A DNA stretch of 55,332 nt from an uncultured Anaeromyxobacteraceae bacterium (GTDB lineage: Bacteria > Myxococcota_A > UBA9042 > DTJE01), in contig CAZNJW010000005.1 in the NCBI GenBank assembly GCA_964573455.1, forward strand, positions 1 through 55,332, written 5' to 3'. The notes under the pieces are model-generated. The model saw only the letters and a program-made list of their open reading frames with translations. It was not told the origin of the DNA and ran no database searches. Position numbers and translations under genes: made by a program. Positions 448 through 55,332 of the stretch are shown piece after piece. Position 1 is the first letter of the stretch. Every line of letters starts with the position of its first letter.

Positions 448-1443
448 ATGCGTCATTTTGGGGTCGTGGCGCCGGTCCTGGCGGTATTAGTCGGCGTGGT
501 GTTGATCTGCCAGTCCGGTACATCGGAGGTTGGTCAACCCGGTGAGACCGTCCCGGTCGATGCGACGGACGAGGGACAGGATCCCGCAGGGGCGAATAAC
601 ATTCGCCCTTCTGGACAGGATGAGGTACAGGATCCCGCAGGGGCGAATAACATTCGCCCTTCTGGACAGGACGAGGTACAGGATCCCGTAGGGGCGAATA
701 ACATTCGCCCTTCTGGTCAGCACGACCAGGTCTACGGTGGTCTTCCGGTTCCGTTGGAAAACGAGTCACGATACGTGCTTCTGGACAACCTGGGGTTTGA
801 CGTCGGTTACTCAGAGTACCGGCAGAATCCAGTCTGGGTTGGATATTCTGTCGGGCCGGAAACCGTCGAAGGGGGAGGGCCAAGACCGCAACGTTTCAGC
901 ACGGACGCGCGCACCGACTCGCGGGTCGCCCATCGTGACTACACCAGGACGGGGTACGACCGTGGACACCTGGCTCCCAATCACGCCATCGCAACCAGAT
1001 ATGGCAGAAAGGCCCAGATTGAGACCTTTATGATGAGCAACATCGTTCCGCAGCGCCCGGCTTTGAATCGACAGGTCTGGCAGAGAATAGAGGCGCTTGA
1101 GGCGGATCGCTGGTCCAGTTCGCTCGGGGGCGTCTGGGTGATCACCGGCCCGGTGTTCGACCGGGACAGAGACTTTCTGAAGCAGTCAGAGCCGCGTATC
1201 GAGATCCCGGACGCGTTTTTCAAGGTGATCATCGACGAGGTCGAAGACACTGGTTCCGGAACCGTAGAGCCGAGGGTTCTTGCCTTTATCATCGAACAGG
1301 ATGTGCAGGGCGACGAGATGCCGGTCGATTTCCTGGTCAGTGTCGATTGGATCGAGGAGCGGACCGGGCTGGACCTGATGCCCGATTTGAACGACGTGAT
1401 CGAGGTACGTCTCGAGGCCGGAGTCGCCGACTCGGTCTGGTGA
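448..1443 (+). CDS. DNA/RNA non-specific endonuclease (NucA/EndoG-like beta-beta-alpha-Me family), N-terminal hydrophobic export/anchor segment
   Basis: YDRGHLAP and MSNIVPQRPALNRQVWQRIE active-site motifs, plus ITGPVF and IPDAFFKVI. Likely start is ATG 448 (MRHFGVVAPVLAVLVGVVLIC); the ORF-track start is 211. Confidence 0.92.
   Translation: MRHFGVVAPVLAVLVGVVLICQSGTSEVGQPGETVPVDATDEGQDPAGANNIRPSGQDEVQDPAGANNIRPSGQDEVQDPVGANNIRPSGQHDQVYGGLPVPLENESRYVLLDNLGFDVGYSEYRQNPVWVGYSVGPETVEGGGPRPQRFSTDARTDSRVAHRDYTRTGYDRGHLAPNHAIATRYGRKAQIETFMMSNIVPQRPALNRQVWQRIEALEADRWSSSLGGVWVITGPVFDRDRDFLKQSEPRIEIPDAFFKVIIDEVEDTGSGTVEPRVLAFIIEQDVQGDEMPVDFLVSVDWIEERTGLDLMPDLNDVIEVRLEAGVADSVW
576..720 (+). repeat. Three tandem 51-bp repeats, each with a GGGCGAAT-aac-ATTCGCCC palindrome, in frame within the nuclease gene (QDP[A/V]GANNIRPSGQDEV)
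   Basis: Units start at 576, 627 and 678 (third truncated). Perfect 8-bp inverted repeat with 3-nt loop in each; third copy has a GTAG 5' tag. Confidence 0.95.
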
Positions 1444-2690: not shown

Positions 2691-2787
2691 AACAGGGGGT
2701 CCGGCCCCCGACCGCAATGTTGTTGGAAAACAATGGTCGGATTGGCGTGACCTCGTCCGTTTCCGCTCGAAACGACTGGCACCAAAT

Positions 2788-2929
2788 GGACGCGGGCAGT
2801 GTCCTGACTCCCGGGTATGGCCTCGCCTGGCCCTTCCGGACAAGTTCATGTCCGTGGCTCGCCAGGGTTGTTCCCGGATACAGTTGCGGCGGCAGTACCG
2901 GCATTGAACCGGTTTCCTGCCCCGTGTCC
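2788..2929 (-). ncRNA. Cobalamin (AdoCbl/B12) riboswitch aptamer
   Basis: Minus strand reads GGACACGGGGCAGGAAACCGGTTCAATGCCGGTACTGCCGCCGCAACTGTA...GAGCCACGG...CCGGAAGGG...GAGTCAGGACACTGCCCGCGTCC. It contains the GGAA-CCGG..CCGG hairpin, CCGCAACTGT, GCCAC/GGAAG and B12-box (AGTCAGGANAC) elements. The ends pair as P1. Confidence 0.9.
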
Positions 2930-3115
2930 CCGGACGTAATCTAGCCTTCCGTCGAAGGCAGGTCAACCCGGATCTCGGAATCCCGTGTTCCTGTCCCTTT
3001 CCGCCTGCCCTGGCGCTGGTACCCAATATCCGAAAACGGTCGGCACCCCGCCACTATGGGGATTTGCCTCCACTTCTGCTATGATTCGGCAGTCGATTCG
3101 AGGTCGGTGTCCGGG

Positions 3116-53994: not shown

Positions 53995-55065
53995 ATGAAA
54001 GACACTGATTGCGGCGAGCTTGCAGCGTTGCGCGGACAACTTGACCAGGTCAACGGCCAGATACTGGACCTGTTGAACGAGCGTGCCAGACTGGTGCTTG
54101 AGGTCAAGCGCGTGAAGGAACAGAACGACATAGGGATGTTCTGTCCCGGCCGTGAGAAGCAGATGCTGGACGATGTGGTGGCGCGAAACCGCGGCCCGTT
54201 TTCGGACGACGTGATCCGTCAGTTGTTCAAGGAGATCTTCCGGGCATCGCTCGAGAGCATGCAGGCAGCCGGTATCGAAGGTCTGCGGGTTTCGCGGGCG
54301 GGTGGCGCCGCGGATGTGGTCATCGATGTCAGGGGGCATGTGATCGGTCGTGAACCGGTGCTGATCGCGGGACCATGCGCCATCGAGAGTCGCGAGCAGG
54401 CGTTCGAGGTGGCGCGGCATCTGGTCGCCCGGGGCGTCGGGTTCATGCGTGGCGGCGCGTTCAAGCCCAGGACGTCGCCATATTCGTTTCAGGGGCTGGG
54501 CGACGAAGCGCTGCGGATCCTTTCCGAAGTACGCAGGGAAACCGGAATCGTCGTGGTCAGCGAAGTGACGGACACGCGCTCGGTCGACAGGATGGCAGCG
54601 TCGGTAGACATCCTGCAGGTCGGTTCGCGAAACATGGCCAATTACGAACTGCTGAAGGCAGTTGGCGCGACCGGGATGCCGGTTCTGTTGAAACGTGGTT
54701 TTGCGGCCACGATTGATGAGTATCTGCTGGCTGCCGAGTACGTGGCGCAGCAGGGCAATGATCGGATCATCCTGTGCGAGCGCGGCATCAGGACGTTCGC
54801 CCGTGAGACCAGGTACACCCTGGACATCGGTGCCGTACCGATCCTGCGGCAGTCGTGCAGGTTGCCGGTCGTTGTGGACGTCAGCCACGCGTCCGGGCGT
54901 CGCGATCTGGTGTTGCCCCTTGCCCGTGCCGCCATCGCGGCGGGTGCATCGGGCGTGATGGTCGAGGTTCATCCGCAGCCGGCGCATGCGTTGTCGGACA
55001 GCGCCCAGCAGATCGATTTCGACGACTTGGACACGTTGCTGAACGCCCTCGGTATGGCGGGTTGA
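53995..55065 (+). CDS. Bifunctional chorismate mutase / DAHP synthase (type I-beta, Bacillus AroA(G)-like)
   Basis: N-terminal AroQ-type CM (LRGQLDQVNGQILDLLNERA); IAGPCAIES, RGGAFKPRTSPYSFQG, GSRNMAN, LCERGIR, DVSHASG, EVH. Confidence 0.93.
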   Translation: MKDTDCGELAALRGQLDQVNGQILDLLNERARLVLEVKRVKEQNDIGMFCPGREKQMLDDVVARNRGPFSDDVIRQLFKEIFRASLESMQAAGIEGLRVSRAGGAADVVIDVRGHVIGREPVLIAGPCAIESREQAFEVARHLVARGVGFMRGGAFKPRTSPYSFQGLGDEALRILSEVRRETGIVVVSEVTDTRSVDRMAASVDILQVGSRNMANYELLKAVGATGMPVLLKRGFAATIDEYLLAAEYVAQQGNDRIILCERGIRTFARETRYTLDIGAVPILRQSCRLPVVVDVSHASGRRDLVLPLARAAIAAGASGVMVEVHPQPAHALSDSAQQIDFDDLDTLLNALGMAG

Positions 55066-55244: not shown

Positions 55245-55327
55245 CGTAGGGGCGAATGTCAATTCGCCCTTCTGGACGGCGAATGTCAATTCGCCCTTTC
55301 CGGACGGCGAATGTAATTCGCCGCTAC
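55245..55327. repeat. GTAG-type REP palindrome cluster (three GGCGAAT..ATTCGCC hairpins, 27-28 bp period)
   Basis: CGTAGGGGCGAATgtcaATTCGCCC, GGCGAATgtcaATTCGCCC, GGCGAATgtaATTCGCCGCTAC; GTAG on the left and CTAC (inverted GTAG) on the right. Confidence 0.85.
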
Positions 55328-55332
55328 GAGGC

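Follow-up and report, generated by a model that had tools for sequence, protein, structure and literature searches.

Tandem REP-family hairpins in frame within the linker of a NucA/EndoG-type endonuclease gene of a Myxococcota bacterium

The DNA analyzed here is a stretch of 55,332 nucleotides from an uncultured Anaeromyxobacteraceae bacterium (contig CAZNJW010000005.1 of assembly GCA_964573455.1, positions 1 to 55,332 of the forward strand), designated the window below. Close to its first nucleotide, a gene encoding a DNA/RNA non-specific endonuclease of the NucA/EndoG type (448..1443, plus strand, 331 residues, stop codon included in the coordinates) harbors an in-frame tandem array of 3.1 units of 51 bp (567..725, plus strand) derived from repetitive extragenic palindromes (REPs). 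We propose, with a probability of about 0.85, that the array originates from copies of a dispersed family of REPs and REP doublets forming hairpins (REPINs), which has a REP-flanked partner gene resembling those of REP-associated tyrosine transposases (RAYTs), and that one such copy was inserted into the tether of an ancestral nuclease and subsequently amplified in tandem.

Results

Three REP-derived units in the nuclease reading frame

The array was delineated by Tandem Repeats Finder, by translation, and by alignment with the sister species. Tandem Repeats Finder reported a single array at this position, with a period of 51 bp, 3.1 copies, 94% matches, no indel, and a score of 283. The hairpin GGCGAAT-AAC-ATTCGCC is present once per unit (591-607, 642-658, and 693-709) and the perfect palindrome of every unit is GGGCGAAT-AAC-ATTCGCCC. 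This core is located at 590-608, 641-659, and 692-710 within the REP hairpins of unit 1 (588..610), unit 2 (639..661), and unit 3 (690..712), respectively, all on the plus strand. The stem comprises eight perfect Watson-Crick pairs (590-597 with 601-608 in unit 1) and, as RNA, reaches 10 pairs by addition of G.U and A-U pairs, with a folding energy of -17.9 to -19 kcal/mol per unit. Units 1 and 2 are one synonymous base apart. Unit 3 fits the consensus of the family described below, cGTAGG-GGCGAAT-loop-ATTCGCC-CTTCTGG, and has an intact GTAG tag (688-691). The initial annotation of the window, made from the sequence without database searches, had reported three 51-bp units with perfect hairpins, in frame and free of stop codons; this description holds in the 448-1443 reading frame, except that units starting at 576 end at 728 rather than at 720. 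The GTAG tag is found in unit 3 only, the tag of units 1 and 2 being GCAG. No Rfam family matched over the array. Two minus-strand open reading frames (ORFs) overlapping the array (386-883 and 487-723) were ruled out based on their negative codon-usage scores.

The motif GGCGAAT-N2-6-ATTCGCC occurs six times in the window versus 0.00 expected from 100 shuffles. Three occurrences are those of the nuclease array and the other three, at 55251-55322, belong to an intergenic REP array (55246..55332, plus strand; hairpins at 55251-55268, 55278-55295, and 55306-55322). The latter array follows the last gene, whose stop codon is near 55064, and folds at -56 kcal/mol (z = -6.9). Its third hairpin is inverted and bears a GCTAC tag, as in REPINs. 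The contig terminates within this REP triplet. The initial annotation had noted that both arms of unit 3 (687-699 and 703-716) match the REP at the end of the window. The match is real, and the unit 3 positions are right, but the contig-end coordinates were one base low: CGTAGGGGCGAAT is found at 55246-55258 and ATTCGCCCTTCTGG at 55263-55276.

Translation of the array

The nuclease contains a full-length Endonuclease_NS catalytic domain (Pfam PF01223) at residues 111-315 (778..1392, plus strand; E value of 6.8e-36; profile positions 18-221 of 223), and 796 homologues were found. D171, R172, G173, and H174 (the DRGH motif), N198, N207, and E215 are invariant in 12 aligned sequences. As do the Serratia and Anabaena NucA nucleases and EndoG, which belong to the same Pfam family, the protein combines the full domain, the DRGH motif, and the conserved Asn and Glu residues with an N-terminal hydrophobic segment. 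This segment, MRHFGVVAPVLAVLVGVVLICQSG (448..519, plus strand), is conserved in the nearest homologues and probably acts in export or anchoring. P9, A12, V13, and G16 are nearly invariant, and the segment is retained in the same frame by all 11 nearest homologues, including the REP-free ones. In the 31 codons located upstream from the array, comparison with the sister species revealed six synonymous and two non-synonymous differences (2, 0, and 6 differences at the first, second, and third codon positions, respectively). Conserved coding sequence in the same frame is thus found on both sides of the array, which is therefore expected to be translated if the protein is made, a conclusion supported by sequence comparison. 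A true start codon downstream of 720, which the initial annotation had considered, is at variance with these data. The array would encode residues 44 to 94, at 17 residues per unit, i.e. two copies of QDPAGANNIRPSGQDEV followed by QDPVGANNIRPSGQHDQ.

In an AlphaFold model of the protein (mean predicted local distance difference test score, pLDDT, of 52.5), residues 7-22 form a helix and residues 23-100 have no secondary structure and the lowest pLDDT (30-38). This hints at a disordered tether, with which residues 23-100 would be compatible, although the model is too poor to count as evidence.

The units belong to a genus-restricted REP/REPIN family

The draft genome (G000), a short-read metagenome-assembled genome (MAG), totals 2.64 Mb in 190 contigs, with a G+C content of 60%, and contains 199 exact GGCGAAT-N2-6-ATTCGCC hairpins. 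Allowing up to two mismatches, at least 235 hairpins were detected in 112 clusters on many contigs. The motif is thus not limited to the two loci of the window, as the initial annotation had proposed to verify, and the hairpins are mostly GTAG-tagged intergenic inverted pairs. The consensus hairpin, cGTAGG-GGCGAAT-N3-4-ATTCGCC-C, is a short palindrome with GTAG at one end. The commonest layout, cGTAGG-GGCGAAT-GACA-ATTCGCC-CTTTCCGGAC-GGCGAAT-GTR-ATTCGCC-GCTACg, is an inverted pair that corresponds to a REPIN-type doublet of GTAG-tagged REPs, with one 4-nt loop and one 3-nt loop. REPIN doublets are typical of the regions between genes, whereas the copies in the nuclease gene are direct tandem repeats.

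Within the genus, the core pattern has 119 occurrences in this genome and 171, 20, and 107 in three further species. Neither the fifth species nor any of 36 genomes representing other genera, families, and orders of the class contained it. These results show that the nuclease units belong to a genus-restricted GTAG-tagged REP/REPIN family. In the draft genome, 35 of the 235 hairpins (about 15%) are in frame, at 13 loci; the remainder are non-coding or located at contig ends. Of the 380 contig ends, 50 have a REP at a distance of no more than 300 nt, indicating that the family is a main cause of the fragmentation of the assembly.

Gain and expansion of the array among orthologues

The nuclease was compared with its orthologues from the sister species (genome G001, Myxococcota bacterium isolate Go_SlDig_bin_368) and from three other species of the genus (G002, G003, and G004). 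P0001, the nearest orthologue, shares 90% identity with this nuclease over the aligned region and originates from the sister species, a Myxococcota MAG recovered in six independent assemblies in which the neighboring genes are syntenic with this locus. At the same site, P0001 harbors one full unit (loop GAT, tag GTAG) and a half unit keeping the 3' arm alone, i.e. 1.5 units, in frame. The length of the array is an exact multiple of 3 both here and in the sister species. The nucleases of G002, G003, and G004 are intact (288-321 residues) and contain no REP; their linkers are shorter and unrelated. Two of these three genomes have the REP family elsewhere. The comparison of orthologues suggested in the initial annotation therefore yielded three units in this species, 1.5 in the sister species, and none in the other three.

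The tether connecting the hydrophobic segment to the catalytic domain lengthens accordingly, from ~24-32 residues (no unit) to ~42 (1.5 units) and ~74 (three units), as anticipated from the proposal that the repeat extends the linker between the export segment and the catalytic domain. The array makes the tether ~51 residues longer, and the added sequence is polar and Gly/Pro-rich. Length-neutral overwriting of existing codons was rejected at this locus, because the linker grows with the number of units. Together, these comparisons indicate that the array results from insertion and tandem expansion in one sub-lineage.

A REP-flanked RAYT-like gene

Two Y1-like genes were found in the genome, on contigs C24 and C66. 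The first (C24:228-758, minus strand; locus L013) encodes a RAYT-like protein of 176 residues and is bracketed by REPs, four with a spacing of 71 bp on one side (9-238) and five with a spacing of 43 bp on the other (833-1022). The protein aligns with E. coli TnpA-REP (PDB 4ER8): its HUH motif, PNHMHAII, corresponds to PEHMHCIW, and its tyrosine helix, QEYVINNP, to VDYIYINP. The orthologue in G001 (locus L009) is likewise flanked by REPs, with seven hairpins upstream and three downstream. The C24 locus thus has the arrangement that defines REPtrons, with a putative RAYT that would act on the REPs. The search for a REP-flanked HUH/Y1 RAYT gene, recommended in the initial annotation, therefore yielded a RAYT-like gene in this species and in the sister species.

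The second gene (C66:4012-4932; locus L001, 1432-2352) is an ORF of 306 codons scoring 63.7 bits on the NCBIfam profile NF047646 (REP_Tyr_transpos), or 65.7 bits in a whole-genome search. It was rejected as the RAYT of the family, as no REP was detected on its contig even with four mismatches, and the REP-flanked C24 gene is the better candidate. The C66 ORF encodes a long C-terminal extension. It is conserved in G001 as well as in G004, a species devoid of the REP family, and may be a domesticated relative.

In-frame REPs in other proteins

In-frame loci were identified with a codon-usage score trained on long ORFs, followed by confirmation of the candidates with Pfam. Twelve further loci contain in-frame REP hairpins, several of them with Pfam domains on both sides. 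Arrays of several units are present in a TonB-like protein (C10, at least five copies of GANDNSPSGTGV), a SPOR-domain protein (C122, three copies), a MerR-like regulator (C24:14496, five copies of QKGECDSPLREPDPD), a TopoIII-RecQ fusion (C76, three copies of VGANDNSPARSR), and a Ser/Thr kinase, after its membrane segment (C61, at least four units). Two to three hairpins are found in a glutaminyl-tRNA synthetase (GlnRS) with a C-terminal tRNA_bind domain (C50), two in a membrane protein (C65), and an inverted doublet in the central loop of a major facilitator superfamily (MFS) transporter (C114). Single hairpins are located in the tail of a PSP1-domain protein (C2:60996), in a membrane protein (C15), and in a secreted protein (C2:9706) and a Pro/Glu-rich protein (C137), neither of which has a Pfam match. 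The coding assignment of the C65, C15, C2:9706, and C137 loci is based on codon usage and sequence character alone. All 12 sites are linkers, loops, or tails.

Hairpin spacing in the coding arrays is in all cases a multiple of 3 (27, 36, 39, 45, 48, 51, or 66 bp), whereas spacing between genes is mixed (43, 71, 77, and 83, but also 69 and 78 bp). For forward copies, the frame in use is always GGG-GCG-AAT (GANx...); both alternatives in this orientation run into TAG, TGA, or TAA. Reverse copies are always read as GGC-GAA-T.. (GEC.../GEL...), although three reverse frames are open; this was observed at five independent loci and has a probability of ~1% by chance. The peptides encoded by the same DNA are unrelated from one locus to another (GANNIRPSG, GANDNSP, KGECDSPLR, and GELSFAP). 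Thus, the conserved entity is the palindrome, with a filter removing unsuitable frames and lengths.

Copy number also varies at other loci. The TopoIII-RecQ linker contains three units in G000, two in G001, and none in G004, and the linker of the MerR-like regulator contains five units here and none in G002 to G004. REP-mediated gene fusion, of TopoIII to RecQ or of GlnRS to the tRNA-binding domain, was considered and rejected since both fusions are ancestral: fused open frames of ~1375-1405 residues (TopoIII-RecQ) and ~730-770 residues (GlnRS-tRNA_bind) are present in other genera and in the REP-free G004. The fusions pre-date the REPs, which therefore entered already existing linkers.

Additional features were observed in three of these genes. 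The C76 gene (92-4259; locus L019) is a frame of ~1380 residues (1389 from stop to stop) in which a type IA topoisomerase (Toprim and Topoisom_bac domains) is fused to a full RecQ (DEAD, Helicase_C, RecQ_Zn_bind, and HRDC domains); the fusion is conserved, with open frames of 1375-1405 residues, in at least six genera of the family. The C50 gene (6709-8938; locus L027) encodes a GlnRS with a C-terminal tRNA_bind domain of the Trbp111/EMAP-like type, an organization that most genera of the family share; in this species, REP copies are present in the linker of the protein. In C10 (15985-16915), the at least five REP units that form the periplasmic linker of the TonB-like protein are 36 bp in length. 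A scaffold gap of Ns inside this array shifts the apparent frame, such that the gene would be mis-annotated.

Other features close to the nuclease gene

Upstream from the nuclease start, positions 404-425 (TTGACATGGTATACCAT) contain the palindrome TGGTATACCA and are near-identical in the sister species, in contrast to the non-coding bases around them. This region may be a promoter or an operator. On the minus strand, a gene ending at 1459 encodes a lipoprotein-like secreted protein without a Pfam family; it is conserved beside the nuclease gene in every species of the genus. Upstream from this minus-strand gene, a cobalamin riboswitch was detected (2777-2941, minus strand; Rfam RF00174, 78.5 bits).

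Discussion

Origin of the array

The array is best explained by the following sequence of events. Before this species and its sister species diverged, a single REP copy would have inserted into the disordered tether that joins the N-terminal segment to the Endonuclease_NS domain. It presumably arrived by the REP dispersal process associated with RAYTs. This copy would have survived owing to its insertion in the only stop-free forward frame of the element and to the tolerance of the linker for extra length. The unit, consisting of the hairpin and its flank (51 bp, i.e. 17 codons), would then have been amplified head to tail, probably by slippage or unequal recombination between direct repeats. 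The same family also forms direct intergenic tandems, such as the five 43-bp and four 71-bp repeats located beside the RAYT-like gene. The proposal of the initial annotation that a REP family generated new protein sequence, followed by tandem amplification, is thus supported by the family, the RAYT-like gene, and the copy differences between orthologues. The added peptide is likely to be tolerated rather than selected.

Several observations weigh against this scenario. The RAYT-like C24 protein scores 65.5 bits on the NF047646 profile, for a curated cut-off of 80 bits, and has no Pfam match at E <= 0.001. In the REP-free orthologues, linker divergence is too extensive for the empty site to be located exactly. 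The copy number of three was obtained from one short-read MAG assembly, no other assembly on record encodes exactly this nuclease product, and the G001 contig breaks exactly at this array. In addition, support for translation comes from comparative data and not from peptides, and the neutrality of the added sequence is assumed.

Alternative interpretations

A broader interpretation, which we consider possible but unlikely, is that the REP family acts in this genus as a general and fast-evolving supplier of disordered linker sequence, with linker length behaving as a contingency-like trait that is open to selection and driven by an element linked to a RAYT. This may account for the frame-compatible units of 36-51 bp in envelope tethers (the nuclease, the TonB-like protein, the SPOR-domain protein, and the kinase ectodomain), and may equally cover the inter-domain sites of the TopoIII-RecQ, GlnRS-tRNA_bind, and MerR-like proteins. 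Acceptance of one peptide reading per orientation and the shifts in copy number between sister species may also be understood in this manner.

True domestication, i.e. maintenance of the peptide array or of the mRNA hairpins by selection, appears improbable. Its role might be to set how far a nuclease tethered to the membrane extends across the periplasm, or to control the pace of translation as the protein is exported. The hosts are enriched for tethers and inter-domain linkers in which length may be important, including those of the nuclease, the TonB-like and SPOR-domain proteins, and the Ser/Thr kinase ectodomain; the hairpins are perfect in all three units; and the use by reverse copies of a single one of the three open frames at five loci suggests a filter operating at the peptide level. 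However, such a filter is equally expected from plain tolerance of polar over hydrophobic sequence, and it is the palindrome that is conserved, since the same DNA gives unrelated peptides at different loci. Copy number differs between the sister species, in one of which a unit is half-deleted, and the REP-free orthologues keep the gene intact. The term "domesticated" used in the initial annotation is therefore not established: nothing points to a selected function, and conservation applies to the DNA palindrome rather than to the peptide.

It is very improbable that the repeats are untranslated, the nuclease being initiated downstream (e.g. at TTG 754 or GTG 775) and the array forming a 5' untranslated region or an intergenic REP cluster. 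In-frame TTG and GTG codons are indeed present after position 725, and Di Nocera et al. (PMC3733652) caution that REPs assigned to the N-terminal end of ORFs are in many cases extragenic. Against this, the upstream hydrophobic segment is conserved in frame, also in REP-free homologues, substitutions upstream from the array are mostly synonymous, and the array has a length exactly divisible by 3 in both species. Furthermore, a downstream start would leave a non-specific nuclease without an export signal. Least probable of all is an assembly artefact generated by mis-joined or collapsed short reads at a repeat with hundreds of copies: the REPs at 50 of the 380 contig ends, the break of the G001 contig at this very site, and the lack of a second assembly with an identical product are in its favor, but both flanks are syntenic with the six independent sister-species assemblies, in which the element is at the same position and in frame, and units 1 to 3 differ from one another at defined bases, so that the presence of the element at this site is secure and the count of three alone is doubtful.

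Relationship to known intragenic palindromes

REP insertion within coding sequences has precedents. Di Nocera, De Gregorio, and Rocco (2013; BMC Genomics 14:522; PMC3733652) catalogued GTAG- and CGTC-tagged REPs located wholly inside ORFs. Dimers and clusters were found to encode 20-82 residues (43-82 for clusters), with DNA repair genes and tRNA synthetases as frequent hosts, and insertion into unrelated proteins was argued to speak against functional constraint. In-frame fusions of small repeats have been reviewed by Delihas (2011; PMC3184786). The initial annotation had stated that REPs are normally extragenic and that in-frame insertion is best known in Rickettsia; most copies are indeed intergenic here, but the occurrence of GTAG REPs in ORFs was already documented in 2013.

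As in that catalogue, the REPs described here are GTAG-tagged and mostly extragenic, with a minority inside ORFs as singles, dimers, and clusters, and the RAYT gene is flanked by REPs. The TopoIII-RecQ and GlnRS hosts also parallel the DNA repair or replication proteins and tRNA synthetases of the earlier study. The family differs in sequence and in phylum, no Myxococcota being mentioned in the paper. The coding copies are also distinguished by their organization, mostly same-orientation tandem arrays of 36-51 bp units with one frame per orientation, and by the documented differences in copy number between sister species.

The system resembles the E. coli and Pseudomonas REPtrons (4ER8) in its high-copy 5'-GTAG hairpin, its inverted doublets, its REP-bracketed HUH/Tyr gene (one copy found), and its vertical, lineage-restricted distribution. 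It differs from these REPtrons by the divergence of the RAYT, whose score falls below the profile cut-off, and from classic REPs, which are defined as extragenic, by the proportion of hairpins in reading frames. The Rickettsia palindromic elements (RPEs; Ogata et al. 2000, as cited in PMC3733652 and PMC3184786) are similarly in-frame palindromes that add peptide at tolerant sites. In contrast to the present family, RPEs are longer or CGTC-tagged, unrelated in sequence, devoid of a RAYT partner of this type, and not described as one-unit in-frame tandem arrays. The units cannot be assigned to RPE-1 to -8 (with the CGTC tag characterizing RPE-4 and RPE-6), as the family has a GTAG tag and is restricted to a single genus of Myxococcota; the similarity to RPEs is limited to the in-frame behavior.

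Significance

The nuclease array is clearly another instance of the known intragenic GTAG REPs and does not change current understanding, since such elements were catalogued in 2013. The novelty lies in the host, a Myxococcota genus from sludge digesters, in unusually clear comparative evidence, and in the high coding share (35 of 235 hairpins). For the annotation of MAGs, intragenic REP arrays call for caution, as they break contigs and can pass for functional peptide repeats. The locus combines a partner transposase, species with 0, 1.5, and three copies at one site, and a dozen parallel cases in a small genome. These cases reveal which sites (disordered linkers), lengths (multiples of 3), and frames (one per orientation) are tolerated, and cleanly illustrate how, in nature, new protein sequence is created by a DNA hairpin that is selfish or semi-domesticated.

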